Assembly (NCBI GenBank): GCA_020632255.1
Contig: JACKFX010000001.1
Coordinates: 58,734-122,733, forward strand
Source: Pseudomonadales bacterium
GTDB taxonomy: Bacteria; Patescibacteriota; Microgenomatia; UBA1400; PJMF01
Direction of reading: 5' to 3'
DNA length: 64,000 nt
A program made the position numbers and the translations under genes. The notes beneath the pieces are model-generated. The model was not told where the DNA came from. It did not search any database and saw only the letters and a program-made list of their open reading frames with translations. Of the stretch, positions 9,085-52,984 are shown piece by piece. Positions within the stretch are counted from its first letter, which is position 1. The number at the start of each line of letters is the position of its first letter.

Positions 9085-9157
9085 AGCGGGAAACGGGGCT
9101 CGAACCCGCGACCTTCTCCTTGGCAAGGAGACACTCTAGCCACTGAGCTATTCCCGC
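9085..9157 (-). tRNA. tRNA-Gly(GCC)
   Basis: Reverse complement folds as a cloverleaf: acceptor GCGGGAA/TTCCCGC, anticodon loop TTGCCAA, T-loop TTCGAGC, discriminator U. Confidence 0.85.
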
Positions 9158-9603
9158 AGATGTGACGATCTGATTATACAACGCGAAGCAAGATGTGTGA
9201 ATAAGAATATCGAGCTATTTCTCTGAGAAGGTTTTTTTAATTAAGTCGGACTTCTATATGATGCTTGGTCTTATCAAGCATGACAAATATACGTATTGCC
9301 TCTATTGATTATATTTAATCTGATTAAGTTGCTATCGATGAGAGGGTGCGCGCAGATAATTCAATCGGTGACAGAATTTCTTCGCAGACCCTTTATTTAA
9401 TGGATTGCGAGGGGTATGATTGCTGTATGTACAATTTTGGTATAACGTCTAATGATAAAAATAGAGTTTTAGGCAATGTTGCCGAAAAAAGTAGTAAGTT
9501 TCTTTTTAAGTGGTTTGGAATTGGTCTGGTTGGATTTATTAATTTTGTTAAATTACTTCTTTCTTCTGCTTTAGGGAAATAATTTTTTGTTCTTTTTTTA
9601 AAA

Positions 9604-9630
9604 AAAAGCCCGTGCCGTAGCACGGGCTTT
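9604..9630. terminator. bidirectional hairpin aaaaagcccgtgc-cgta-gcacgggcttt
   Basis: 9-bp GC-rich stem between A- and T-runs, at the 3' end of the lipoprotein gene. Confidence 0.5.
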
Positions 9631-9633
9631 GCC

Positions 9634-9936
9634 CTATTGGGGTTGGGGCCAGCACTGAGTGCTGATCCCCGTTCCCCTCATCTGCATACTTACCTCTCGT
9701 ATGCAGTTAAACTTTTGGCCGTTGGTCGTCGTAATCACGATCTCCATGGTGAAGACCGTGGCACACATCAGCGAACCCTCGCATATTTGTGTGCTCGTAA
9801 TGTTCATCGTCTCTACTACCAGCCCCCCGTCGCCCACTGCGACTGGGGGGGGAGTTGGGACTGAGGATGGCCCTCCGGCACATCCTGATATAACAAACAA
9901 AATAAAAAACAAAACAATCACCAATATGTTTCTCAT
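9634..9936 (-). CDS. small Cys-rich lipoprotein (lipobox VISGC)
   Basis: Signal peptide plus lipobox, Pro-rich linker, six cysteines. Confidence 0.45.
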   Translation of the reverse strand: MRNILVIVLFFILFVISGCAGGPSSVPTPPPVAVGDGGLVVETMNITSTQICEGSLMCATVFTMEIVITTTNGQKFNCIREVSMQMRGTGISTQCWPQPQ

Positions 9937-9962
9937 GTTCTTCTCCCTCCTGCTTTGAATTT

Positions 9963-9980
9963 ACGTCTATAAAGACGTAG
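9963..9980. promoter_or_regulatory. 18-bp near-perfect palindrome TACGTCTATAAAGACGTA upstream of the lipoprotein gene
   Basis: 8 of 9 positions self-complementary. Lies 27-44 nt upstream of the start codon at 9936. Confidence 0.3.
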
Positions 9981-10855
9981 AGCAGGAGTTAGCAACCAAT
10001 ACAAATTGATATTAGTTTGTAACTCCTGCCCTAAAACAAGAGAGAGAGGTTAAAATTTGCGATTACCCGAATTAATGAGCAATTACATACTGATGAGACG
10101 CAAGGTAGCAGTTTGTATGTAGGGGGTCATATTATATCATTATATATGTAAATATGTAAATATTATAAGTCATAAATGATGATGAATGTCGATTGGAGTA
10201 AGCACACAGAGTTAGAACTCTAGTATCCAAATGATTCTATGGGTTTTGCTATTACCTTAGTATACGAGTGAATGTATGAAAAACTCATTGTTACTCGTAG
10301 TGCTCAGGCTGTTAAGTTGCGTGTTAAAAGAGGAAACAACTCATACATCTTTTGTGTTTGTAGTACGGGAACAGATATTGATGAAGGATCTATGGCATCG
10401 GTTGTATTTGATTACAAAGAACACTAGTTTAGCTTTGTATGACGTGCCTTCTTCAGAGGGTAACAAAATAACTAAATCGGAAAGATTGCATGCCATCAAT
10501 GCATCTGTTTAAGGAGGAGTGTTTTTCAAGCAGTTGTTCATGTATTAAGTCTAGTCAAACACAACTGGCTCAGTGAGTACGGGATATCAGAGAGATTAGA
10601 GAGAAATATCATACTCACGGCCTTGTGATGGATGTGAGAATCTATTGCGCAATGAAACGTTTGTCATTTACCACACAATCAAACAACTCATCAGTTGTCA
10701 TTTTACTTGTGTTGAGCAAATAGTTGTTATTGTTGGGATTATTTTTGAGTTGATTTAGTTGCGTTCCCGATCTTTTCTGTACTCATAGGTAAAAAATCAG
10801 GACTTATTACAATGGAGAAATGTATTATCACGTTGAGGAAAGTTAAGTGATAGTG

Positions 10856-10928
10856 TGCCAAGCTGAGGAGTCGAACCTCAATCTCATGTTTTTCAGACAT
10901 GCGCCGTGACCACCTTGGCTAGCTTGGC
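10856..10928 (-). tRNA. tRNA-Phe(GAA)
   Basis: Acceptor GCCAAGC/GCTTGGC, anticodon stem catgt/acatg with loop CTGAAAA, T-arm GAGGTTCGACTCCTC. Confidence 0.8.
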
Positions 10929-10948
10929 TTAAGCATAACGAGCGAGTG

Positions 10949-11021
10949 TGGAATGTAAGGGACTCGAACCCCTGACCCTTCGGATGTAAGCCGAATGCTC
11001 TACCAACTGAGCTAACATTCC
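10949..11021 (-). tRNA. tRNA-Val(TAC)
   Basis: Acceptor GGAATGT/ACATTCC, D-arm GCTCAGTTGGTAGAGC, anticodon loop CTTACAT, T-arm AGGGGTTCGAGTCCCTT. Confidence 0.85.
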
Positions 11022-11055
11022 ACTTGTTGTTTTATGGTTTCAACCACAAACACTG

Positions 11056-11136
11056 TGCCCAGGAGAGGACTTGAACCTCCACACCTTTCGGCATACGCAC
11101 CTCAAGCGTACGTGTATACCATTTCACCACCTGGGC
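11056..11136 (-). tRNA. tRNA-Leu(GAG)
   Basis: Acceptor GCCCAGG/CCTGGGC, anticodon loop CTTGAGG, long variable arm, T-arm GGAGGTTCAAGTCCTCTC. Confidence 0.85.
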
Positions 11137-11283
11137 ATGTAATGTGTATGAGTCACAGCTAACGCGACTCAAGGCATACATTATAAAATATAATCCCTCT
11201 TTGGGGAAGTAGTATCTGGTGGGCATCTTCTCAAGATATGCTCATCATTAGTTCACTTCCTTATTGGAACTATGCAAACTCTG

Positions 11284-11367
11284 TGCCAGAGAAGGGAGTC
11301 GAACCCTTACGCCCGTAATGAACACTAGTTCCTGAAACTAGCCTGTCTACCATTCCAGCACTCTGGC
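11284..11367 (-). tRNA. tRNA-Leu(CAG)
   Basis: Acceptor GCCAGAG/CTCTGGC, anticodon stem ctagt/actag with loop TTCAGGA, long variable arm. Confidence 0.85.
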
Positions 11368-11449
11368 AATTTGTTTCGTAGCGACATGACAACAGAGGTT
11401 ATTGTACCGTGTTTTGAGGTTTTTTTCAGAAGAAAGACTAAAATATTGT

Positions 11450-12142
11450 TTATGTTTTGACTGAGTGTTTAAATTTTTGGAAAAAGGCTTCGATAATGAT
11501 GTCTCTGGCTTGATCAAAGTGACAGTATGTTGTGTTGATGGTCAAGTCGTACGAGTTGACTTTCTTGGGGTCTTTTTTAAAGTATTGTTTGACAAACTCG
11601 TTGCGTTCTTTTTCTACTTTGGCTATGATTTCCCTTGCTTTGGCCATGTTATGACCTTCGTAGTCGATAGCTCTCTGGACACGGATGTTGTACGGTGCAG
11701 TAATATTGACATGAAGTCCTTTAGCGAATGGGGTGATGAAGTTAGCTCCTCTTCCCAAAATGACGCATTTGCCTTTATAGGCATATGCCAGTACAACTTT
11801 GATGAGTTCGGTGATGTAGGCAGAATCATCAATGTATTCTGCATTCAAAACTGAATGAACCACATCCTCGATTTTTGTACGATGTTTCTCGTCGATCGCT
11901 TTGATGATGGCTTTGCGTTTTTTTGTAGATCGTGCGATTTCATCAATGATTTGTTCGTCTACAAACTCAAAGCCTAGCTTTTCCGCAATTGCTTCTGCAA
12001 TTGGGGCTCCCCCACTGCCGGGCTCACGAGCAATGGTGATAAAGGGGCGAGTGAAAGAATTTTCAGCTTGAACGGTAATGTCTTCTTTCAAGTTGAAAAA
12101 CGTTAAAGCTTTGTTGATCAGGGGATAGTATCGTGTATACAT
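11450..12142 (-). CDS. cytidylate kinase-like family protein (P-loop-like ITIAREPGSGG)
   Basis: N-terminal ITIAREPGSGG and the overall length match the cytidylate kinase-like family (Cytidylate_kin2). Confidence 0.5.
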   Translation of the reverse strand: MYTRYYPLINKALTFFNLKEDITVQAENSFTRPFITIAREPGSGGAPIAEAIAEKLGFEFVDEQIIDEIARSTKKRKAIIKAIDEKHRTKIEDVVHSVLNAEYIDDSAYITELIKVVLAYAYKGKCVILGRGANFITPFAKGLHVNITAPYNIRVQRAIDYEGHNMAKAREIIAKVEKERNEFVKQYFKKDPKKVNSYDLTINTTYCHFDQARDIIIEAFFQKFKHSVKT

Positions 12143-12262
12143 ACCCTATATTATACCGTCATATGGACTCTTTGTCTAGTTTTAGCTCGGGGCTTTTTTG
12201 AGAGTTGTGTGGAGTGGTATAATATAATTTGCGAATAAAAACTCGCCTCTTTATTTTGCCAT

Positions 12263-12336
12263 GCACCAGTAGCTCAGCTGGATAGAGCACCGGTCTTCGG
12301 AACCGGGTGTCGGGGGTTCGAATCCCTCCTGGTGCA
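12263..12336 (+). tRNA. tRNA-Arg(TCG)
   Basis: Acceptor GCACCAG/CTGGTGC, D-arm GCTCAGCTGGATAGAGC, anticodon loop CTTCGGA, T-arm GGGGGTTCGAATCCCTC. Confidence 0.85.
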
Positions 12337-25324: not shown

Positions 25325-26446
25325 TTAGGTTTGAGACTGACTAACCTCTAAAAGAATTGCCTTAATGGATTTGTTAAATTCTCTGATTAACCTTTTCGAT
25401 TTTTTCCTAAATTCTGGCTGTACATTCGATTTTCTTCGAATCGAATGCAACATCTTGTTGTAGGGAATTGATGCTGGATTATCATCAATTTGCCAAGTGC
25501 CTTGTATGAAATGACTTAGGACATATCGTTGATCATTGGTAGTATTTTGTATGGAGTATTCGGAAAGTAACTCTTCCCATGCGGTCATATGACTTTGCCA
25601 AGCGTCTGCCAATTTATGTTCAATAGCATCCCTTAATTCAACTGACTTTTGCACTGCCTTTATCGCAGTGCAAGCATTCATTTCGTATATGCATTTTCTG
25701 ATGTAATCATTAAACCCAGATGGATTTTGAGGATTAAATTGAACAATTGGAAAGCTCCTCCATTCAACTGCTAATTTTTGGTCCTCTGTTTCATGCAAAG
25801 GAGTTATTTTACTTTCTGATCGGTTGGAAAAATATGGAAAGTGTATCTGTGTGTTTCCGTCTTTCAATGGTGTGAATCGACGATGAATTTCACAGCAATC
25901 AGTTGAAGGTGCTGAAGTGGCACTATTAATGATGCCACTTGCTTCAAGAATTGCTCGAGCATCCATAACTTCTGTATGCTCTGGTGAAAGTTTAATTCCT
26001 CCATATGTTTCATGAGCTACGGTTTCACCTTCAAATGCACTATTTCTAATTGCAAATAGTAGAGAGCGAAGAAGAGTGATATTACTGTCTGCCGGATATG
26101 TGACCCCTTCTCTAATTTGATACATATGTTCATTTGGAACAAATGTATCATTAAATGTTGTTACATCAGCTTGTTTTCCAGCTAAAGTTTGAGCTTGCAA
26201 TAGGATATTTAAACGAGTACGACTTCCAGATAAACGTGCATCTCTATAAGCTTTATACATTGCTGGATCAGTGTATTCTATTTCCAAGCCGAATGTTGGA
26301 GTATATGGATTACTTCTTAAGTTGAGTTCTTGGTTCTTTTTTCTTATACGTACAAGAAAATCGTAGATTGCTTCGACTTCTTGATAAAATTTGGCACTTG
26401 AAACATAAGCCTTCTCATCACCCTTTCTATACAACCACCCATGCAA
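25325..26446 (-). CDS. hypothetical protein (373 aa)
   Basis: Long ORF with no recognisable motifs. Confidence 0.45.
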   Translation of the reverse strand: MHGWLYRKGDEKAYVSSAKFYQEVEAIYDFLVRIRKKNQELNLRSNPYTPTFGLEIEYTDPAMYKAYRDARLSGSRTRLNILLQAQTLAGKQADVTTFNDTFVPNEHMYQIREGVTYPADSNITLLRSLLFAIRNSAFEGETVAHETYGGIKLSPEHTEVMDARAILEASGIINSATSAPSTDCCEIHRRFTPLKDGNTQIHFPYFSNRSESKITPLHETEDQKLAVEWRSFPIVQFNPQNPSGFNDYIRKCIYEMNACTAIKAVQKSVELRDAIEHKLADAWQSHMTAWEELLSEYSIQNTTNDQRYVLSHFIQGTWQIDDNPASIPYNKMLHSIRRKSNVQPEFRKKSKRLIREFNKSIKAILLEVSQSQT

Positions 26447-27229: not shown

Positions 27230-28516
27230 ATGATTGGTAATAATGGAGAAACTACTAGTACAGGTATAAAGGAAAGAAAAACTGAAATTCAGGATGATCT
27301 TTTGAAAGAACCGACCGACCCCGTTGTCTACTTTAGGAGCATGTTTGAGGATGAGCTTAACATTGAGCGTCAAAATGTAAAGGAAATGATATTGGCTGCG
27401 GACTCGATTGATAAAAAAATAAACCTCTTACGATCATGGCGAAAAAGATATGCGAATATTTCGCAGGTTACTGAAAATGTTGAAGATGATCCTACAATTT
27501 TAAATTTTTCCTTGTCACAGTACTCTGAATATATTCCATTTTATGAAGTCATTGAAAAAAAATATCCTTGGATTTCAGCTTTAGAAAAACAAGATAGGAT
27601 TCACCTAATGGATAGGCTGATAGAATCATTTTTAGCGAGTGGGAAGTTTTCAGAAAATTTTTTATCACAAATTCCTCTCCTTTTCAAAAAGTATAAATCA
27701 CTTAAAAGGAGATTAGATGTAATTGATGCAAACCCCAGTTTAGGTGATTCTGAGGCGAGAAAATTAAAAGCTCTAGCTAGATATGAAGAATTTTCGTATG
27801 GAGGAAGAAGTGTTTTTGATATAGCAAGATCTAATTATGATGCGGTAAATCTTTTATTAAATAGTGGAATTTTACAAAGATCTGAATTGGGAAGATTATT
27901 GTTAAATCGCATACCAAATCTTGAAATGTATGCTAGTCATTTTAGTAACCGTTGGGGGTATAAATATATTTTAAAAACAGGAGAGCTAACTTGTGCTGCA
28001 GAACTACAAGAAAACCCAAATATCCCTTTTAAAAAGTTTACTTGGGTGAGTGATGCTGCTTTGAGGAATGATAGTATGTGCTTTTTTTGTCTCGGAAGCC
28101 ATGATTCACGTGACTACGGATCCAGAAATGACTCTAGAAATGGCACACCATTTTATTTGGATATTGGCAATAACCCAGGCTTGTTAAATGGAGCTTTAGT
28201 TAGAGTTCACATAACTCAATTTGATAGTAATGAGAATATTTTACCAACTGAAGCGGAGCAAATGAGTTTAGATTCAGAACTATATCCAGCAACAAATTAC
28301 AAAGAAATATTAATCTTTCAGTTATACAGAAAGTTTATTGGGAATGAAGACATGACTTCTTATGAAGAGTTAATTTTCAGGTTGAAAAATGATAATGATG
28401 AAGAGTTGTTACGTTACATAGATGACAACCAAGATGATTTGGGTGTATATCTAGAAATAATTGTTCCATCGCATGTAAAATTGTGGGATTTGATTGTTGG
28501 CAGTCCAGTGAAATGA
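27230..28516 (+). CDS. hypothetical protein (428 aa)
   Basis: Long ORF with no recognisable motifs. Confidence 0.45.
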   Translation: MIGNNGETTSTGIKERKTEIQDDLLKEPTDPVVYFRSMFEDELNIERQNVKEMILAADSIDKKINLLRSWRKRYANISQVTENVEDDPTILNFSLSQYSEYIPFYEVIEKKYPWISALEKQDRIHLMDRLIESFLASGKFSENFLSQIPLLFKKYKSLKRRLDVIDANPSLGDSEARKLKALARYEEFSYGGRSVFDIARSNYDAVNLLLNSGILQRSELGRLLLNRIPNLEMYASHFSNRWGYKYILKTGELTCAAELQENPNIPFKKFTWVSDAALRNDSMCFFCLGSHDSRDYGSRNDSRNGTPFYLDIGNNPGLLNGALVRVHITQFDSNENILPTEAEQMSLDSELYPATNYKEILIFQLYRKFIGNEDMTSYEELIFRLKNDNDEELLRYIDDNQDDLGVYLEIIVPSHVKLWDLIVGSPVK

Positions 28517-32390: not shown

Positions 32391-32499
32391 TGTAAATTAT
32401 ATCAGGTTAGAACTGTCGCTCGAAGGGAAATTAAGGTGTACTAATGTGGTAGAAAGCATAAAGAGATTTAGATTGATATATAAAGATATATTTTAAGTG

Positions 32500-32570
32500 A
32501 TGCCCGACTTGGATTCGAACCAAGATTGACGGCTTCAAAGGCCGCTGTCCTGCCATTAGACGATCGGGCA
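32500..32570 (-). tRNA. tRNA-Gln(TTG)
   Basis: U1:A72 acceptor TGCCCGA/TCGGGCA, anticodon stem gcggc/gccgt with loop CTTTGAA, T-arm CTTGGTTCGAATCCAAG. Confidence 0.85.
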
Positions 32571-32690
32571 TTGGGTGACATTTGTCACAGGCAGATATTG
32601 TAACAAATTTTTTATGTTTGCTCAATCGGATTTTCTCTGGAAATATAGTGTGTCTAGTCAATAAATCTCAGCTGTGTATACTTAAGAAGT

Positions 32691-33204: not shown

Positions 33205-34752
33205 TTACTTGTTCTTCAAATCAAGCTCACGGTTAATAGTTCCCATGACTTGTGGACCGTTAAACACCATGCCAGTAATCATTTGAAGTAAGTCTGCCCC
33301 GGCATCAAGTTTTGCTTGTGCAGTAGCGGTGTCAAAAATGCCTCCACAGCCAATGATAGTAAAGCGATCATAGAAGTTATCTCGAGTTAGTTTGATCAAA
33401 GCATTTGAGCGTGCAAAAGTTGGTCGGCCACTGAGGTTTCCTTTACGCGACTTCCAAACTTTTCTGTCTTCTGGTGTAACAGCAGGATTATTCTTATCCT
33501 TTGTCAGGTTCCCAAAAATGACACCTTGCACATTGTGTTCATCAGCAACCGCTAGCAATTGTAGGGTTTCTTTTTCAGACTGATCAATTGGCATCTTGAT
33601 GTACAAAGGTTTACTCAGTTGGAGTGAATCGGTGACAGTCAGTAGTTGTTCTAATCGTGCTGATGAAGTAAAAGGTTCACCCCCAAAGGTGTTTGGACAG
33701 CTAATGTTTAATTCATAGTAGCTATGGTTAACGTGAGATTTTTCAAACACTAAAAAACCTTTGACGATATCCATAATTTGTTCTTGGTCGCTGTCAAAGT
33801 GAGCGTTAGTTGAAGCAATACTAATACCCACAGGAACGGTGAATTGAACACCTGTAAGTCTGCGAGCAACTTCTTTAGCCCCCAATGTTTTGAGCCCTTT
33901 GTTTACAATCAGAGCCTTTGAGTTGGGTAAACGACCCAAACGGGGTTTAGGGTTACCCTCATATGGTTGGTAGGTAACAGTACCAATTGTGTGCCACCCA
34001 AAACCGACGGGTCCTAAAATGCGTGCCATTTCGCCGTTATAGTCGAAGCCAGCACACAGGCCCATCTTATTTGGGAACAGAATTCCATCCTTCACAACTG
34101 CAGTTGTAGCTGAGTTGTAAGAAAAAACGATTGATGTTAACCAACGTGTGATAGCAAAACTTCCGAGTAATTTTCCAAAAAAAGTAAATTGATTATGGAC
34201 AGCTTCTGGGTCAACTAAAAAAAGAATTCTTTTTAGAATATTTTGATATAAAAATCCAATAGTTTTTTGACTCACAGCTTTTAGCAAGGAATGGGGACTA
34301 TTCTGAGTCATTCTAAAGTATTTCCAAGAAACGAAAAAAAGTGTTGCGCTTGTTACTGCTGAAATCAGGCAATACAAACACCAACCCTTAATGAGAACGG
34401 CCATGATAAAGACTAAATACATGGAGAACAAGAGTCCGAATGAAGTGATCAAGGTGTAGAGCTGTTGTGTAGAGGTATATGCTCGCAGTTTTTTTGGCAT
34501 CCATTTGGAGACATCAATTTCGAGCAGCAGTAAACTACCTAAAATAAGTAGTGTCGCATAATACAATAATCCTAATATTGAGACAGGTATTGGTCCAATA
34601 TGTGAGTACTTACTCAGTAGCACTGCTCCACAATCAAAGCCTGTTCCACAGGGTGGAATGATTCCCTGCATTTCCTCGAAGGTAATGTATCCTGCATCAG
34701 TAAGTCCAATGAGTGGAAGTGCAACATGCAGAAGAAGGAGAAAGAGTTTCAT
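33205..34752 (-). CDS. fusion protein: N-terminal VKOR (vitamin K epoxide reductase)-like membrane domain + C-terminal class-2 dihydroorotate dehydrogenase
   Basis: N-terminal 170 aa: loop Cys pair PPCGTGFDCG (Cx5C), SKYSHIGPIPVSILGLLYY, and a TM CXXC (GWCLYCL). C-terminal: GLCAGFDYNGE, NISCPNT, IIGCGGIFDTATAQAKLDAGADLLQMITGMVFNGPQV (PyrD). Confidence 0.6.
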   Translation of the reverse strand: MKLFLLLLHVALPLIGLTDAGYITFEEMQGIIPPCGTGFDCGAVLLSKYSHIGPIPVSILGLLYYATLLILGSLLLLEIDVSKWMPKKLRAYTSTQQLYTLITSFGLLFSMYLVFIMAVLIKGWCLYCLISAVTSATLFFVSWKYFRMTQNSPHSLLKAVSQKTIGFLYQNILKRILFLVDPEAVHNQFTFFGKLLGSFAITRWLTSIVFSYNSATTAVVKDGILFPNKMGLCAGFDYNGEMARILGPVGFGWHTIGTVTYQPYEGNPKPRLGRLPNSKALIVNKGLKTLGAKEVARRLTGVQFTVPVGISIASTNAHFDSDQEQIMDIVKGFLVFEKSHVNHSYYELNISCPNTFGGEPFTSSARLEQLLTVTDSLQLSKPLYIKMPIDQSEKETLQLLAVADEHNVQGVIFGNLTKDKNNPAVTPEDRKVWKSRKGNLSGRPTFARSNALIKLTRDNFYDRFTIIGCGGIFDTATAQAKLDAGADLLQMITGMVFNGPQVMGTINRELDLKNK

Positions 34753-34782
34753 GAGGTCATTCTACACGCTCTCGACGTGTTT

Positions 34783-35532
34783 TCAAGATTGCTTTTGGTA
34801 TTTTAGAGGTGTGACAATGTAGTAAGAATTGACACTTTCTTCTTTGCCATCGGCGCGGTAGGTGCTTATTTGTGAGAGGTTGGTTGCGTGCAAAAGCTTG
34901 GCAACTTCTCCGGGGGTGAAGTAATGACAGTACCGAATCGCCAAGGGACCTCTTTGCCAGTCTAAAAAGTAATCTTCATCTTCGAGTTCGTGTGTTCGGA
35001 TGTTAATTTCATGTGGATTGATTGTTTTTTTCCTAAGTCTCTCAAACTCCATAAATTGCCAAGTTGTGAAAACCAAAGTTCCGCTTTCTGTTAACAGTGA
35101 TGAAGCAGCTTTTATAAGTTGAGCACGTAGTTCGAAACTCGGAATGTGATGCATAACGCCGAAAATAGCAATCAGATTAAACTTTTGATCGGTCGGTACA
35201 AGAGGTGAACCACTTAAAAAGTTAGAAACGATATCGTTTTTTAAAAAGTCTCCTGAAGGATTTGCTGTTTTGGCTGCATCGAGTAACTGCTGGTTACTAT
35301 CAATACCGGTGTAGTTTGCTAAATTATGAAAATGCTCTGTGGCAAACGATCCAAATCTGCCGTTGCCACACCCAATATCTAGAACTGATGAAATTTTTTC
35401 TGCATCAATATGCTCAAGCAGCTTAATCCACCCTGGCCAGTAGTGGTTTCGACTGTTATCAAAGTCTGAAGCTACAGTTGTGTAAAATTCTGAGTTGAGT
35501 TTATTAAGTTGTGCGATGGTACTTTTTTGCAT
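34783..35532 (-). CDS. class I SAM-dependent methyltransferase
   Basis: VLDIGCGNGRF motif I. Confidence 0.6.
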   Translation of the reverse strand: MQKSTIAQLNKLNSEFYTTVASDFDNSRNHYWPGWIKLLEHIDAEKISSVLDIGCGNGRFGSFATEHFHNLANYTGIDSNQQLLDAAKTANPSGDFLKNDIVSNFLSGSPLVPTDQKFNLIAIFGVMHHIPSFELRAQLIKAASSLLTESGTLVFTTWQFMEFERLRKKTINPHEINIRTHELEDEDYFLDWQRGPLAIRYCHYFTPGEVAKLLHATNLSQISTYRADGKEESVNSYYIVTPLKYQKQS

Positions 35533-35590: not shown

Positions 35591-37441
35591 ATGTATCAGT
35601 TCAACCCAGAAGACTATTCAGATCAATTGGTACCCCTGCTCAAAAAGCTCGAAACGTACAAAACGCTAAGCCCCAAAGAGTTGGCGCGATTGGTAAAGAA
35701 ACACACCAAAACAAATGGTGATGTGTTGTCGAAGGACGAAATTATCCGTGGGTATCGACACTTTGCTGGGACACATGGACTAGCTCCATTTTCTGAAAGA
35801 GTTGTGAAGTTGGTAGCGATGAAGCCGATTCGCACTCAATCTGGTGTTTCGCCGGTTACCGTGCTTACAAAGCCGTTCCCCTGCCCTGGTCAGTGCATTT
35901 TTTGTCCCAATGATGTGAGGATGCCGAAGAGTTATTTGGCGGATGAGCCCGGCGCGCAGCGTGCCGAGCGAAATTGGTTCGATCCCTACCTTCAGACATA
36001 CAACCGTCTGCAAGCTCTCCACAACATTGGGCACACAGTTTCAAAAACAGAAATCATTGTCTTGGGAGGCACATGGTCTTTTTATCCTGAAGCGTATCAG
36101 ATTTGGTTCATCAAAGAATGTTTTCGGGCGCTCAATGATTTCGGAACACATGATGGTCGCGATCAGGTTTTGAGATGGTACGAAAATATGTCCACAGAGC
36201 TCAAGAAAAAAAATATCCAAAGAACTTCGGAACCAGAAACAAACAAGCGATCACTTGCTGATCACCAAATCGATGGTGAAGCCATGAAGAAAACATACAA
36301 CCGTGTTATCTCTGAACAGTACACTGCTCCAGAAAAATTGGGTGGCTTTGATGGTTACCAAACTGCAACATGGGAAGAGTTGGAAGCTGCTCAAAAAGAA
36401 AATGAAACTGCTGCTGTTCGCTGTGTGGGGTTGGTTATTGAAACTCGACCTGACAATATTTCAGAAGCAGAAGTCATCAGGGTTCGGAGACTTGGATGTA
36501 CCAAGACACAAATCGGAGTACAGTCTTTGCAAGACGAAGTGCTTGATAAAAACAAGCGAGGTCACAACGTAGCCGCTACTCGTAAAGCATTCAAATTACT
36601 GCGCCAAGCAGGTTTTAAAGTACATGCGCACTGGATGGCAAACTTGTATGGATCTGATGTTGAAAAGGACAAGCAGGATTTTGAAGGCTTATTTTCAGAT
36701 CCTGATTTTCATCCTGATGAGCTTAAAGTGTATCCTTGCAGTTTGATTGGCAGTGCAGAACTCATGCAGTACTACAAAGCTGGCAAGTGGCACCCCTACT
36801 CTCGTGAAGAATTAGCTGAAGTGTTGGCTCATGTTTTTAAGGCGACTCCAGAATATTGTCGTCTTACTCGTGTGATTCGAGATATTCCTTCAACCGACAT
36901 TGTTGAAGGCAATAAACTTACTAACTTCCGACAAATTGTTGAAAAGAAACTCAAAGATGAGGGTGTGGTTGTTACAGATATTCGTGCTCGAGAAATTAAA
37001 AATGGCACGTTTGATCCTAAAGATATTGAGTTCAAAGTGATTCAGTACGAAACTTCTGTGAGTACAGAATATTTCTTGCAATATGTGGTTCCCGAAAAAA
37101 AAGTGCGTTTTGTCCAGAAACGTCAGCAACATACAGACGATATTATTTTAGGCTTTTTACGACTTTCAATTCCCAAAGAGAAAAATTTTATTGAAGAACT
37201 CACAGATGCGGCGATTGTTCGTGAAGTCCATGTGTATGGAAGTGTGGTGGCAGTTGGTAAAGATAGCAGTAGTAAGCCTCAGCACTTGGGTTTGGGTAAA
37301 AAATTATTAGATGAAGCTACCAGAATTTCGACACAGAATGGTTTTAAAAAGTTAGCGGTTATTTCTGGAATTGGAACTCGAGAGTACTACCGTATGCGTG
37401 GATTCAAAGACGGAAACCTTTATCAAGTGAAAGATATGTAG
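35591..37441 (+). CDS. ELP3-family radical SAM / GNAT protein (tRNA wobble-uridine modification, Elongator subunit 3 homolog)
   Basis: Radical-SAM cluster FPCPGQCIFCPND, an ELP3-type central domain and a C-terminal GNAT (HLGLGKKLLDEA). Confidence 0.7.
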   Translation: MYQFNPEDYSDQLVPLLKKLETYKTLSPKELARLVKKHTKTNGDVLSKDEIIRGYRHFAGTHGLAPFSERVVKLVAMKPIRTQSGVSPVTVLTKPFPCPGQCIFCPNDVRMPKSYLADEPGAQRAERNWFDPYLQTYNRLQALHNIGHTVSKTEIIVLGGTWSFYPEAYQIWFIKECFRALNDFGTHDGRDQVLRWYENMSTELKKKNIQRTSEPETNKRSLADHQIDGEAMKKTYNRVISEQYTAPEKLGGFDGYQTATWEELEAAQKENETAAVRCVGLVIETRPDNISEAEVIRVRRLGCTKTQIGVQSLQDEVLDKNKRGHNVAATRKAFKLLRQAGFKVHAHWMANLYGSDVEKDKQDFEGLFSDPDFHPDELKVYPCSLIGSAELMQYYKAGKWHPYSREELAEVLAHVFKATPEYCRLTRVIRDIPSTDIVEGNKLTNFRQIVEKKLKDEGVVVTDIRAREIKNGTFDPKDIEFKVIQYETSVSTEYFLQYVVPEKKVRFVQKRQQHTDDIILGFLRLSIPKEKNFIEELTDAAIVREVHVYGSVVAVGKDSSSKPQHLGLGKKLLDEATRISTQNGFKKLAVISGIGTREYYRMRGFKDGNLYQVKDM

Positions 37442-45579: not shown

Positions 45580-45897
45580 CTAAAATAAGCACTTACTCAA
45601 ATCAACTTTATTTTTTTTGAAGATGACGCCCTCAGCCCGAAGTTTTTGTTCTTGTACTTTGGCTCCACCAAAGGCGTACCCTGGAGCCAGTCTGCCATCA
45701 CTAAAAACAACTCGATGACAAGGAAACTGTGAGCTGTCAGGGTTTTGGTGTAAAATTTTACCAACTAACCGGGGAGTGGATAAAAACAGGTCTCTGGCAA
45801 TTTGGCCATAGGTTGTGACTTTTCCCTTGGGAATGGTTGTTAGATACTCAAAGACGTCGGGCGCAAACTTTTTGAGTGCAGATGGTTCATTTTGCAT
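45580..45897 (-). CDS. methylated-DNA–protein-cysteine methyltransferase (MGMT/Ogt C-terminal domain only)
   Basis: PCHRVV active-site motif and TYGQIA. Start taken at the internal Met (MQNEPSAL). Confidence 0.6.
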   Translation of the reverse strand: MQNEPSALKKFAPDVFEYLTTIPKGKVTTYGQIARDLFLSTPRLVGKILHQNPDSSQFPCHRVVFSDGRLAPGYAFGGAKVQEQKLRAEGVIFKKNKVDLSKCLF

Positions 45898-46981
45898 GAG
45901 ATTTGTTTGTAAGGTTCGTATGTAAATATAGTAGGTGTACAAAAATACCAAGGATTAGAAACAGCTCTGTTAGCTCCTCCCAAGATTTGAAGCGCCATGG
46001 GCCATGAATTTTTCTAAGCCATAAGTATAACAGGATGAAACTAAAGTTAAAAAAGAGATGGGCACCCGGAATTACAATTTTTTTCCAAGTCTGAATACTT
46101 TTGATCTTTGGTACGAGATCTTTTAGGAGCCACTCAACTACCCAAAGAAATGCTCCGTATACTCCAATCGCGGTGTAGCCAACATAGACAAATGGCCAAA
46201 ATGTTTCTGAGTTATGAATGTTGATCTCATCTTGATGATTTTGATCAGCGATGTGATCGGGTGTTTCAATGTTGAAAATACGTTGACCCCATGAAATTTC
46301 TTCAAGAGCAACCAATGTGAGCGCAACACCAACTGCAATGCAGCCAAGTTTATAGACTAGCTGGTGGTATTTATTTGCAAAAAGTTTCTTTCTGCTTAGG
46401 TTGAACGAGATTAACCCACTGACAAAAAACAGAAGAGCTGTTGCCATTTCAACAAGGCCATCCTCAACGATAAGATCTGAGTACTCAAATGGATGCATCA
46501 AATAATAGAGCCCAAAAGTGACAATAGACAATAGCGTTCCAGTTGCAAAAAGAGTTTGCCAATTATTTTTAAGAAATGATGGTGGAAGGTGAAGTAGACC
46601 AAACAATAATCCAGGAAAACTAAGTAATAGAATTGCTTCAAAATTGATTTTATAGATTTCTAAAAAGTAGTTTAGAAAAAGTCTCCCCTCCTCTAATAGC
46701 AGTACGATTACTGTGAGCAGAATACTCGTTGGGAGCAAAATAAATAGATTTCCAAATGAGAATTCTTGGGAGAAGCGGTGTTCTCTTTTGGTAGCGAAAA
46801 AGAGTGCTGCATGCAAGCCAAATAAGGCAAGTATTACTAATTTTGCAGACAGTCCGGTGTTGTTTAGAATGCTATCGTGGTAGGTCAAAAACTCAACTAA
46901 GACTACGAGAAGAGAAGCTACATACAAAACCTTCAGAAGTGTTTTTGCTGCAACTTTGTTTAAGGGTTTCTGTTGGAACAT
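45887..46981 (-). CDS. polytopic membrane protein, unknown
   Basis: About 10 predicted TM helices. Confidence 0.45.
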   Translation of the reverse strand: MFQQKPLNKVAAKTLLKVLYVASLLVVLVEFLTYHDSILNNTGLSAKLVILALFGLHAALFFATKREHRFSQEFSFGNLFILLPTSILLTVIVLLLEEGRLFLNYFLEIYKINFEAILLLSFPGLLFGLLHLPPSFLKNNWQTLFATGTLLSIVTFGLYYLMHPFEYSDLIVEDGLVEMATALLFFVSGLISFNLSRKKLFANKYHQLVYKLGCIAVGVALTLVALEEISWGQRIFNIETPDHIADQNHQDEINIHNSETFWPFVYVGYTAIGVYGAFLWVVEWLLKDLVPKIKSIQTWKKIVIPGAHLFFNFSFILLYLWLRKIHGPWRFKSWEELTELFLILGIFVHLLYLHTNLTNKSHAK

Positions 46982-51346: not shown

Positions 51347-52984
51347 ATGAAGATACAAACATATGTTTGGGTGCTGTGCCTACTATATATTTTTTTGAGT
51401 TTTCCTACATTTGCATTTGCTGCTCCGGCCGATCTCGATTCAACATTTAACAGTTCTTCTGGAATCGATGGCCAAATTGTGCATACTGCAGTAGATTCAA
51501 GCGATCATATTATTATTTATGGATATTTTTCCACATACGATTCATTGAATTTTTCAGGTTTAGCCAGAATTGATAAAGATGGTCTGATTGATCCTTCCTT
51601 TGATCCAGGTACGAGCGCAAATGGAACTGTCGAAGCTCTTGCTGTTCAGTCTGATCGAAAAGTAATTATTGCTGGAGATTTTGACTCATTTGATGGTGAC
51701 TCAATTATTGACATTGCTCGCTTAAATGCAGATGGTAGTTTGGATTCAAGTTTTGATCCTGGGCTGAGTTCAAATGGCATTATTTATGATGTTGTGGTAT
51801 TACAGTCAGGAAAGATACTTGTCGCGGGGCAATTTTCATCATTTAATAGCATTTCTGCAAATAACATAGTTTTACTCAATCAAGATGGAAGCGTAGATAC
51901 AGCTTTTGATGTTGCAACTGGGCCTAACGAAAGTGTGAAGGCACTGCTCGAACAACCAGATGGGAAAATTGTGATTGGTGGAAATTTTACTACATTTAAT
52001 GCTCAGTCTAGACAATATCTTGCCCGAATCGAGTCCGATGGTTCACTCGATACAAGTTTTATTGTTGGTAGTAGCATTGAATTTCCAGTATATTCACTTG
52101 CTTTGCAGTCCACCAACAACATTATCTTTGTTGGACTTTTTTATAATGATTCTGGTGTAGAAGATATTCAAATCGGTAGATTATTAGCTGATACCGGTAC
52201 GCTTGATTCTTCATTTAATCCAGGTGGGGTTGCCACAGATCCAGGATATTGGAGCAATACGGTTTCTATAGAAGCTCTCAAGGTTTTAGATACAGATCAA
52301 ATTCTAATTGGAGGACAGTTTCGAGAATATAATTTGGTTACTCGAAACGGAATTGCACGATTGCAAGCCGATGGAACACTAGATACTGTTTTTGATCCCG
52401 GCACAGGTGTTGATTATGCTGTCAAATCAATTTCCTTGCTTTCAAACAACCAAATTATTATTGCTGGTAATTACTACACGTATAACGATAGTGCTTCTGT
52501 AAGCATATCTAAGCTTGAGGGAGATCCTCTAGTTGAGCAAGGTTCTGATGAGGAGATTGAGGTTTCAAGTGGTAATAATTCTAGTTCTGGGTTCACTAGC
52601 TCAATTTCGAATGTTAATACACCAAGTTGCAGTGATTCTACTCCTGTAGGAGTCCCAGATTTATTTCAAGTTGATGTTGCTTCGGATCGTGCCATACTTT
52701 ATTTTTCACCTGTAAATACTCCTGCTCCCAATTATTTAGTTTCATATAGTCAGTACGATAATGCATTTCAACATAGTGTCTTTACAAATCAGGGATACTC
52801 CTCTGGAGCTCTTGTATTTACCATTGATGAATTACAGCCTAATACGACGTATTTTATGAAAGTACGGGGACAGAATGGATGTGCTCCCGGGCATTGGGGC
52901 AATCAGGTAAAAATTACTACTGCTAAAAAGGGTGTAGCTTATTATCGCCCCGTGTATGCCTTTTCGCCTATTCGATTGTTCTAG
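51347..52984 (+). CDS. secreted beta-propeller-like repeat protein (reiterated DG(S/T)LD(S/T)SF(D/N)PG motifs) with a C-terminal FN3-like domain
   Basis: Signal peptide. At least 8 repeats of DGSLDSSFDPG-like units spaced ~45-60 aa apart (delta-60-type repeats). Confidence 0.45.
   Translation: MKIQTYVWVLCLLYIFLSFPTFAFAAPADLDSTFNSSSGIDGQIVHTAVDSSDHIIIYGYFSTYDSLNFSGLARIDKDGLIDPSFDPGTSANGTVEALAVQSDRKVIIAGDFDSFDGDSIIDIARLNADGSLDSSFDPGLSSNGIIYDVVVLQSGKILVAGQFSSFNSISANNIVLLNQDGSVDTAFDVATGPNESVKALLEQPDGKIVIGGNFTTFNAQSRQYLARIESDGSLDTSFIVGSSIEFPVYSLALQSTNNIIFVGLFYNDSGVEDIQIGRLLADTGTLDSSFNPGGVATDPGYWSNTVSIEALKVLDTDQILIGGQFREYNLVTRNGIARLQADGTLDTVFDPGTGVDYAVKSISLLSNNQIIIAGNYYTYNDSASVSISKLEGDPLVEQGSDEEIEVSSGNNSSSGFTSSISNVNTPSCSDSTPVGVPDLFQVDVASDRAILYFSPVNTPAPNYLVSYSQYDNAFQHSVFTNQGYSSGALVFTIDELQPNTTYFMKVRGQNGCAPGHWGNQVKITTAKKGVAYYRPVYAFSPIRLF

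Follow-up and report, generated by a model that had tools for sequence, protein, structure and literature searches.

How does a cell that lacks a respiratory chain make use of an enzyme built to pass electrons to quinones, and why would it join two such enzymes in one polypeptide? The question is raised by a gene on the minus strand of a 64,000-nucleotide stretch of contig JACKFX010000001.1 (below, "the window" means the whole of this stretch), in which a VKOR (vitamin K epoxide reductase) domain and a dihydroorotate dehydrogenase (DHODH) are encoded together. Bacteria that belong to the Candidate Phyla Radiation (CPR) are reported to have no electron transport chain, no quinone biosynthesis, and mostly incomplete nucleotide pathways (PMC5113843; PMC8407418); most of them are inferred to be anaerobic fermenters (PMC8407418; PMC5113843). 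The first-pass annotation of this DNA had supposed a host with a reduced respiratory chain, which is supported, as the named relatives of the protein are found in Woesebacteria, Pacebacteria and Patescibacteria, that is, in the group to which the CPR literature applies (PMC8407418; PMC5113843).

The gene is one continuous open reading frame (ORF) with an ATG start and no internal stops. In a Pfam scan residues 9-143 match VKOR (PF07884; 79.3 bits, cut-off 27.5) over positions 3-134 of the 134 in the profile, and residues 223-511 match DHO_dh (PF01180; 142.9 bits, cut-off 27). An AlphaFold2 model of the full fusion, built on an alignment of 67 relatives, has a mean pLDDT (predicted local distance difference test) of 93 and a pTM (predicted template modelling score) of 0.88; it consists of four long helices in residues 2-149, three helices in the linker and N-terminal region of the DHODH (155-177, 182-198, and 200-209), and then a beta/alpha barrel. 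The first-pass annotation had read a VKOR and a class-2-type DHODH from this single ORF and had quoted three motifs, CGTGFDC (C35-x5-C41), CLYC (C125-C128) and NISCPNT (residues 349-355); the two Pfam matches bear out the former, and the motifs are where it had placed them. It is conceivable that a frameshift, a mis-assembly or a read-through has joined two genes, the more so as separate VKOR and DHODH genes exist in some relatives. The ORF, however, is continuous, the same junction occurs in 52 species-level genomes and in 118 protein clusters, independent assemblies and contigs of more than 1 Mb included, and around the junction the sequence is conserved (invariant Y169, F178, E183 and H186 in the 67 relatives) and the model reaches pLDDT > 90. 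We reject such an artefact, whose probability is negligible. The ORF is a genuine chimera of VKOR and DHODH encoded by a single gene, and our confidence in this architecture, as in the genetic coupling described below, is very high.

The fusion is widespread. The first-pass annotation had proposed a database search for the same architecture; in a search of 5.8 billion proteins, both PF07884 and PF01180 are present in 118 of the 120 best relatives, at 51-78% identity over the full length, and these 118 two-domain protein clusters originate from NCBI, JGI, ENA, and Logan assemblies. Named relatives belong to Candidatus Pacebacteria, Woesebacteria, and the "Patescibacteria group", and a partial protein in a Candidatus Woesebacteria genome is 100% identical. 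In a set with one genome per species (GTDB representatives), at least 456 DHODH relatives, fused or not, were confirmed, and the best 80 of these loci were scanned with hidden Markov models (HMMs) built from the family: 52 carry the fusion, 6 carry VKOR and DHODH as separate nearby genes, and 22 carry an unfused DHODH. The fusion gene is thus conserved in at least dozens of the ultra-small CPR species, and probably in hundreds. Closed or near-closed genomes with the fusion include BOKR01000001.1 (1.17 Mb) and OY969569.1 (0.995 Mb), and BOKX01000001.1 has the split module. All informative record titles of the loci name CPR lineages. Many third-party metagenome-assembled genomes titled "uncultured Pseudomonadales" or "uncultured Gammaproteobacteria" (e.g. 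L001, L002, L005, L028-L031) carry this CPR-specific gene in CPR-like neighbourhoods, and their labels look unreliable. Known VKOR fusions link the domain to thioredoxin or DsbA-like domains (Synechococcus, plant LTO1). A VKOR survey that adds giant-virus modules mentions no DHODH fusion (PMC13486548), and we found no description of one in the literature that we searched, the coverage of which is incomplete. The novelty claimed at first therefore stands for the literature only: both domains belong to known superfamilies, and the architecture is frequent in public databases, where it bears automatically assigned names such as "dihydroorotate dehydrogenase (quinone)" or "hypothetical".

Is the VKOR half a working oxidoreductase or a mere membrane anchor? 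Since DHODH matches swamped the fold search with the full protein, residues 1-165 were modelled alone (pLDDT 89.9); the 14 top Foldseek matches of this model in the PDB are all VKOR structures with a probability of 1.00 (Synechococcus VKOR, human VKORC1, and Takifugu VKOR-like), the next match having E > 1. A profile of the N-terminal family retrieves Synechococcus VKOR from the PDB (E = 3.6e-10), and the alignment brings both cysteine pairs into register, C35 and C41 with Cys50 and Cys56 of that protein. HMM, profile and fold thus all support the VKOR assignment of the N-terminal domain, which displays the full-profile match, the four-helix bundle, the cysteine pair, the loop serine and the CxxC motif in the fourth transmembrane helix (TM4). 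Of the two outcomes that the first-pass annotation had named as refuting its claim, a frameshift or sequencing error and a failed VKOR assignment, neither applies. Residues C35, C41, S47, C125, and C128 are invariant in the 67 relatives and in 59 VKOR domains from the loci, at identities down to ca. 40%. A search of 1.84 billion cluster representatives finds as nearest relatives of the fused domain standalone VKORs of 140-170 residues, with 40-50% identity. Because the four cysteines and Ser47 are invariant, the fold matches VKOR structures only, and the nearest relatives are ordinary standalone VKORs, we take the domain to be catalytically intact; judged by these conserved residues it is redox-competent, not degenerate.

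The DHODH half is related to class-2 enzymes, albeit with an unusual active site. With its C-terminal ca. 350 residues it superimposes on full-length class-2 DHODHs, the TM-scores (normalised to the target) being 0.87-0.89 for the enzymes of H. pylori, M. tuberculosis, E. coli, and humans; in an alignment of PDB sequences it matches E. coli PyrD from residue 2 onward. Class-2 DHODHs (E. coli PyrD, 1F76; M. tuberculosis, 8OFW; human, 1D3G) are also closest in sequence, with E-values of 1e-39 to 1e-31 as against only 8e-6 to 1e-3 for class-1 structures, and share the full fold, including the N-terminal two-helix quinone domain. The active site was compared by aligning 79 CPR DHODHs, from fused as well as unfused genes, with those of E. 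coli and M. tuberculosis. Four changes are fixed in all 79 (E. coli numbering): Ser175 to Cys, Lys66 to Tyr (GFDK to GFDY), Asn139 to Ser, and Thr247 to Leu; the base that is replaced is Ser175 in E. coli and Ser215 in the human enzyme. All 79 also have the loop L-I-N-R-M-G-F-N-N altered to L-(L/I)-V-N-K-G-(F/L)-(K/R)-N, which introduces two new invariant basic residues. Retained throughout are His19 and Arg102 of the quinone tunnel (here His186 and Arg274), Asn172, Asn177, Asn246, and the FMN-binding Lys217. The NCBIfam models for quinone-dependent DHODH, the class to which the equivalogs TIGR01036 and PRK05286 belong, score best, yet the fusion stays below every curated cut-off (256 against 448, 243.9 against 267, and 198.3 against 200 bits), which we attribute to the substitutions in active site and loop; class-1 models reach ca. 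40 bits, with cut-offs of 270-300. An unfused Levybacteria relative (L078) does pass two class-2 equivalog models (282 against 267 and 233 against 200 bits).

The barrel and the N-terminal two-helix quinone domain are therefore those of class 2, whereas the serine base, the GFDK lysine and a curated equivalog score are missing. With class 1 the protein shares the cysteine base (compare NLSCPN), but neither the overall kinship nor the absence of an N-terminal domain. Failing on serine base, lysine and equivalog scores alike, it is no plain member of class 2; judged by its alignments, the DHODH half is a distinct CPR subfamily, class-2-like in fold and kinship, and Cys352 is, by its aligned position, a class-1-type residue at the site of the catalytic base. 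The "complete PyrD" of the first-pass annotation holds in so far as the half is complete, class-2-type and equipped with the quinone-tunnel helices; its NISCPNT is no ordinary class-2 motif, which would read NISSPNT.

A cysteine at this position deserves attention because Cys-type class-II enzymes of fungi work without respiration (PMC8520639). Fungal class-II DHODs normally carry serine; cysteine occurs in three anaerobically active enzymes that were tested (SjUra9, DbUra9, and ArUra9) and in 3 of 331 other Ura9 sequences, and every species with a Cys-bearing sequence is anaerobic or micro-oxic (Bouwknegt et al. 2021, PMC8520639). The tested Cys enzymes sustain pyrimidine synthesis without respiration, an ability that SjUra9 loses with the C265S mutation; ArUra9 accepts free FMN or FAD and not decylubiquinone, and adaptation of DbUra9 selected fumarase mutations (PMC8520639). 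The CPR clade, with the same class-II scaffold and Cys base in a similarly non-respiring setting, looks like a bacterial counterpart of such respiration-independent class-2 DHODHs, except that it has kept the quinone domain; the fungal enzymes, for their part, are eukaryotic, of independent origin and without VKOR, and ArUra9 has lost its N-terminal quinone domain.

The fungal case suggests that the DHODH half might use no quinone at all and instead deliver its electrons to free flavin, to a flavodoxin encoded in the same operon or to fumarate, the VKOR being an independent tether or a co-regulated neighbour. Such a scheme would suit the invariant Cys352, the acceptor preference of ArUra9, the fumarase mutations selected with DbUra9, and the changed active site implied by Lys66 to Tyr and the remodelled loop, and a flavodoxin gene does lie between VKOR and DHODH, or just past a VKOR-lactate dehydrogenase pair, at L024, L027, L081, and L085. 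That flavodoxin, however, is restricted to one sublineage and absent near fused genes; the CPR clade keeps the quinone domain that ArUra9 lost, with His19 and Arg102 in all 79 sequences, and is joined to a quinone enzyme, a recurrent linkage that the scheme leaves unexplained. We consider it improbable. The preserved N-terminal helical domain, the two tunnel residues and the class-2 fold recovered in the model suggest instead that the DHODH half uses a quinone.

Where the two quinone sites lie in the membrane can be predicted from the charge distribution. Averaged over 67 members, the net charge is +0.8 for the N-terminus, -0.7 for loop 1 (with Cys35 and Cys41), +2.2 for loop 2, and +4.3 for the 28 residues past TM4. 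By the positive-inside rule, and consistently with the solved VKORs, the N-terminus, loop 2 and the C-terminal end are predicted to be cytoplasmic, loop 1 and the CxxC turn to face outward, and the DHODH domain to be cytoplasmic: both cysteine pairs outside, DHODH inside. In solved VKORs the quinone is bound beside the CxxC, near the outer leaflet, and in class-2 DHODHs the quinone tunnel opens to the cytoplasmic leaflet. The first-pass annotation had asked whether the VKOR quinone pocket faces the FMN site of the DHODH; the predicted topology puts the two quinone sites at opposite faces of the membrane, so that a quinone would need to traverse the bilayer to pass from one to the other.

Evidence that the two halves belong together also comes from genomes in which they are separate genes. 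At L023 the VKOR stop and the DHODH start overlap in an ATGA; at L076 and L093 the order is reversed, DHODH preceding VKOR, with a ribosome-binding site (AAGGA at L076); at L042 the two genes are divergently transcribed. At L024 VKOR, L-lactate dehydrogenase (L-LDH), flavodoxin, and DHODH form one overlapping operon, at L085 there is a VKOR-flavodoxin-DHODH operon, and at L027 a Crp-family regulator stands between DHODH and a VKOR-LDH-flavodoxin unit. At L045 (Woesebacteria) a tRNA-Gly(TCC) gene (10382-10456) lies between separate VKOR and DHODH genes, where the fusion has its domain junction. None of the six split cases from the 80 loci (L023, L024, L027, L042, L045, and L076) is an error; they are all genuine gene pairs. 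As loci chosen by their DHODH are biased, we also searched from standalone VKOR and inspected the contexts of seven further distinct VKORs. In 5 of the 7 a CPR-type DHODH adjoins or lies within ca. 1 kb: DHODH, Crp, then VKOR-LDH-flavodoxin (P0275); Crp, then VKOR-flavodoxin-DHODH (P0273); Crp, then VKOR-DHODH with overlapping ends (P0280); DHODH-VKOR (P0133); and an operon of the L024 type (P0270). Of the others, P0276 has in its vicinity a divergent gene from the DHO_dh superfamily that is of a different type, and P0165 has no DHODH on its 3.5-kb contig. None of the seven contexts has a thioredoxin or DsbA-like neighbour. The genetic coupling of VKOR and DHODH extends across CPR lineages, by fusion or by adjacency in either order. 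The functional coupling of the halves that the first-pass annotation had suggested is thereby backed, while its nature and direction are what we infer below.

In one CPR sublineage the genes recur as a module (L024 7434-11095; L085 4321-7979; L081 4110-7861; L027 9968-13719) of a divergent Crp-family regulator, VKOR, a short flavodoxin, L-LDH and the Cys-type DHODH; the gene order differs between loci, and the genes often overlap at their ends. The VKOR-linked dehydrogenase is an L-LDH, as it scores above the TIGR01771 cut-off at the two loci tested (L024 and L042), which rules out a malate dehydrogenase (MDH) that would feed fumarate. A Crp/Fnr-family regulator (cNMP_binding and HTH_Crp_2 domains) is found within ca. 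3 kb of the CPR-type DHODH, mostly adjoining it, whether the latter is fused, split, or unfused (L024, L027, L042, L056, L064, L069, L074, L076, and L077, cluster 10; L081-L089). A role as Fe-S-containing oxygen sensor of the FNR type is ruled out for this regulator, which has no conserved cysteines. Beside the Crp/VKOR/DHODH module at L089 (4199-5307) are genes for a PrxQ-like thiol peroxidase, just under its cut-off, and for an FMN_red-family protein, a combination that hints at oxidative stress. At L087 (3527-4591) a divergent DHO_dh-superfamily protein of 354 residues is encoded near a standalone VKOR; it remains below all NCBIfam cut-offs, with at best 69 bits for PRK07259 (class-1-type DHODH), 57 for PreA, and 23 for the CPR-DHODH profile. 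A few kb from the VKOR module, at L087 (2054-3202) and L085 (1-233), there is a fused DsbD_2 (CcdA-like) and cupredoxin gene, which adjoins genes for an HMA-domain protein and a P-type ATPase in a copper-handling cluster.

What might the two enzymes do together? The orotate/dihydroorotate couple has a potential of ca. -250 mV and menaquinone one of ca. -74 mV. For DHOD-bound FMN, values of ca. -240 to -330 mV are quoted (PMC8520639). With such potentials DHODH can only act as a quinone reducer; both textbook reactions, moreover, reduce quinone, and the quinol must be re-oxidised by something. Fused enzymes usually catalyse consecutive and not competing steps, and VKOR is the only other quinone enzyme that is consistently linked to this DHODH. 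We propose that dihydroorotate would be oxidised to orotate at the FMN of the DHODH domain, the electrons then reducing a membrane quinone at the inner-leaflet tunnel; this quinone is probably scavenged, as CPR are reported not to make quinones. The quinol would cross to the outer-leaflet VKOR site and be re-oxidised there by the CxxC disulfide, and the loop cysteines would hand the electrons on to an extracytoplasmic thiol/disulfide acceptor. VKOR would thus act as a quinol:disulfide oxidoreductase and drain the electrons, so that a quinone-type DHODH could keep turning over with no respiratory chain, and the fusion would keep both sites around one scarce quinone. That the domains share a scavenged quinone, with VKOR as the electron outlet for DHODH, is the reading we favour, if tentatively, as its probability falls a little short of even. 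Its strictest form, a single-polypeptide transmembrane conduit in which dihydroorotate reduces one captive scavenged quinone and VKOR, reversed with respect to the textbook, exports the electrons to extracytoplasmic disulfides, is rather unlikely, though by no means negligible.

Several observations weigh against an outlet through VKOR. We know of no member of the VKOR/DsbB group shown to run physiologically from quinol to disulfide. The transfer from menaquinol to a DsbA-like disulfide (ca. -120 mV) runs slightly uphill and would require the quinone pool to be highly reduced. CPR VKORs were tied to MdbA-like oxidases by Meheust et al. 2019, implying the classical oxidative direction (PMC6744442). 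As for the extracytoplasmic acceptor, no thioredoxin-like gene is conserved nearby, and a WCPxC protein occurs at two loci only, 1.9 and 9 kb off. In 22 of the 80 loci (from Levybacteria, Magasanikbacteria, Nomurabacteria, and others) the Cys-type DHODH (355-412 residues) is unfused, and VKOR is absent up to 10 kb away. Conversely, at L090 (5001-5522; also L091) there is a VKOR of 173 residues with no DHODH domain or remnant, at a locus syntenic with the window (MgsA, RecQ, MazG-like, Elp3, methyltransferase, the VKOR gene, and VIT1); the flanking genes are 55-72% identical and the VKOR only 46% identical to the VKOR domain of the window. L090 represents either a natural loss of the DHODH domain or the state before the fusion, and since VKOR stands alone at this syntenic site, it has a DHODH-independent role in at least one lineage.

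Some of these observations lend weight to a scheme in which both domains work in their textbook direction as parallel quinone reductases: VKOR oxidises exported proteins of the MdbA/DsbA type, DHODH oxidises dihydroorotate, and both reduce the same scavenged quinone, the quinol being re-oxidised elsewhere (by O2 autoxidation, by a bo3-type oxidase in some lineages, or by an unknown enzyme). The fusion would then serve for anchoring, co-localisation, and co-regulation around a cofactor in short supply; eukaryotic class-2 DHODHs likewise use an N-terminal membrane anchor. Both domains have kept their canonical catalytic apparatus, CPR VKORs are linked to MdbA-like oxidoreductases in 88 of 750 genomes (PMC6744442), some soil CPR have ubiquinol oxidase operons (PMC8407418), and the VKOR of L090 and the DHODHs of the 22 loci indicate that each can work without the other nearby. 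The PrxQ-like peroxiredoxin, FMN reductase, and Crp-family regulator flanking the L089 module hint at an O2-related setting, though the Crp-family regulators have no conserved cysteines. Enzymes that compete for oxidised quinone, however, gain nothing obvious by fusing; separate genes that are conserved as neighbours, in both orders, point to more than an anchor; and no quinol-oxidising enzyme was found in the window or in ca. 1.3 Mb of related loci, most hosts being inferred anaerobic fermenters. We regard parallel reduction as the main rival, only slightly less probable than the outlet through VKOR, though still on the doubtful side.

Electrons could also be imagined to flow the other way, from exported thiols through VKOR to quinol, FMN, and fumarate (or orotate), DHODH serving as the sink of an anaerobic oxidative folding system. 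Such a flow would account for the fusion as well as for a VKOR that is needed in its own right, and class-1A enzymes use a Cys base to reduce fumarate (background in PMC8520639). The step from menaquinol (ca. -74 mV) to FMN would nevertheless be strongly uphill, orotate (ca. -250 mV) cannot accept electrons from quinol, and there is no linkage to a fumarase or fumarate-forming gene, the dehydrogenase in question being an L-LDH and not an MDH; we deem this direction very improbable.

Several known systems resemble parts of the fusion. It shares with bacterial VKORs (Synechococcus VKOR-Trx, 3KP9/4NV2; M. tuberculosis; Actinomyces oris) the four-helix core, the loop Cys pair, the serine, the CxxC of TM4 and the predicted topology; unlike Synechococcus VKOR and plant LTO1 it has neither a fifth helix nor an extracytoplasmic thioredoxin domain, its partner being a predicted cytoplasmic flavoenzyme. 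The VKORs of M. tuberculosis and Actinomyces oris have MdbA/DsbA partners, whereas no DsbA/MdbA-like gene is linked at the CPR loci examined. In place of the amphipathic or single transmembrane helix by which class-2 DHODHs attach to the membrane, the fusion has a whole four-helix VKOR. If VKOR is an electron outlet, there is a likeness to DsbD/CcdA, which also moves reducing equivalents from a cytoplasmic donor to extracytoplasmic cysteines; these proteins are unrelated in fold and chemistry (a thioredoxin-fed cysteine cascade with no quinone or flavin), and the fusion is no member of their family. In the giant-virus modules of VKOR and vitamin-K epoxidase-desaturase, VKOR is likewise adjacent or fused to a second enzyme that shares its quinone/quinol, and VKOR there serves another end than DsbA re-oxidation (PMC13486548). 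There, however, VKOR supplies quinol to a consumer, while the CPR partner itself reduces quinone, and domains and hosts differ (PMC13486548).

The features of the gene and of its nearest neighbours are collected in Table 1. No Shine-Dalgarno motif precedes the ATG of the fusion, the transcript of which is possibly leaderless; the promoter-like site listed is the best in the region, where the count of such sites is not above the expectation from shuffled sequence.

Table 1. Features of the fusion gene and its upstream neighbours (window coordinates)
Feature	Position	Strand	Basis or remark
Whole ORF, VKOR-DHODH fusion protein, 515 residues	33205-34752	-	Stop codon 33205-33207; ATG start; uninterrupted
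VKOR domain, residues 1-150, four transmembrane helices	34303-34752	-	Pfam, profile against PDB, Foldseek, DSSP helices, charge bias
Loop cysteine pair C35-x5-C41 (CGTGFDC), putative outer-face shuttle cysteines	34630-34650	-	Invariance; alignment to Synechococcus VKOR
CLYC (C125-C128), putative active-site CxxC, outer end of TM4	34369-34380	-	Invariance; aligns with CMYC of Synechococcus VKOR
Positively charged linker and DHODH N-terminal helical domain (residues 151-222), counterpart of class-2 quinone tunnel	34087-34302	-	Aligns to E. coli PyrD residues 2-55
His186, equivalent to E. coli His19	34195-34197	-	Conserved in 79/79
DHODH FMN-binding barrel, residues 223-515	33208-34086	-	PF01180, Foldseek; retained Arg274, Asn349, Asn354, Lys386, Asn415
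Tyr238, replacing class-2 GFDK lysine (E. coli Lys66)	34039-34041	-	All 79 CPR sequences have Tyr; E. coli and M. tuberculosis have Lys
VNKGLK, remodelled substrate loop (canonical INRMGFN)	33889-33906	-	Two clade-invariant basic residues, Lys285 and Lys288
NISCPNT (residues 349-355), catalytic-base motif, Cys352 for class-2 Ser (E. coli Ser175)	33688-33708	-	Cys in 79/79 CPR sequences
Promoter-like TTGAAA-16-TAGAAT	34759-34786	-	10/12 matches; ends 6 nt before fusion ATG; weak evidence
Class-I SAM (S-adenosylmethionine) methyltransferase, directly upstream of fusion, 30-nt gap	34783-35532	-	Position -1 in 18/19 carriers (loci or window), -2 in the other
Bacterial Elp3 homologue (radical-SAM and GNAT tRNA-modification enzyme)	35591-37441	+	TIGR01211, 489 bits against cut-off 350

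The surroundings of the gene offer few clues to its function. The upstream methyltransferase is not supported as a quinone methyltransferase (31 bits with UbiG against a cut-off of 103). Elp3 is divergent from the methyltransferase/fusion pair and lies two genes upstream of the fusion (three in one locus) on the opposite strand in 16 loci, and a VIT1-family transporter gene is convergent with the fusion, 1 nt from its stop. RecQ, Tag, and MgsA are further neighbours in the window, none with an evident functional link. Across loci the recurrent neighbours are the methyltransferase, Elp3, RecQ, MgsA, and VIT1, plus the Crp-family regulator; the recurrence of the window's neighbours in 10-19 loci is explained by synteny among close relatives. 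Within the 64-kb window, no genes for pyrimidine synthesis, quinone biosynthesis, oxidases or Dsb proteins were recognized among 40 of the 43 other ORFs of at least 150 residues, and clustering of 1309 neighbouring genes from the 80 loci yielded no conserved pyr or Dsb/thioredoxin neighbours. BLAST with approximate E. coli queries likewise found no PyrB, PyrE, PyrF, TrxA, or DsbA in the window or among the 1309 neighbours, a weak negative given the low sensitivity of such queries.

Elsewhere in the window, the Rfam scan detected tRNAs only. A cytidylate-kinase-like gene (11450-12142) is surrounded by six tRNA genes within 3.3 kb (9085-12336), four of them, on the minus strand at 10856-11367, being tightly packed. 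A listed ORF of 76 residues (32431-32661, minus strand) overlaps a tRNA gene (32500-32570, minus strand) and is almost certainly no gene. At the left end (1-1892) are a tRNA (1-76) that the window start truncates, an integrase of the tyrosine-recombinase/phage type (234-1046, minus strand) and a protein with an ADP-ribosyltransferase exoenzyme domain (1326-1892, plus strand), possibly an integrated mobile element with a toxin-like gene. The plus strand at 51347-52984 encodes a protein of 545 residues made of DUF5122 beta-propeller repeats (196 bits), and many large ORFs are without a Pfam match, e.g. 25325-26446, 27230-28516, and 45887-46981.

CPR are reported to have neither a respiratory chain nor quinone synthesis, yet many of their species fuse or co-locate two quinone-type enzymes. 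This raises the questions of how respiration-less cells make pyrimidines, or form or reduce extracellular disulfides, of whether CPR depend on host-derived quinones, and of what a class-2 DHODH with the rare Cys-for-Ser replacement, here accompanied by Tyr-for-Lys, does differently. Under automatic annotation neither the VKOR half nor the atypical active site is visible. The fusion is a compact, expressible system for testing a VKOR that runs in reverse. If the transmembrane conduit is real, it would establish a new physiological direction for enzymes of the VKOR/DsbB type and would provide a quinone-type DHODH with a drive free of any respiratory chain, implying that these CPR bacteria depend on quinone derived from their hosts.

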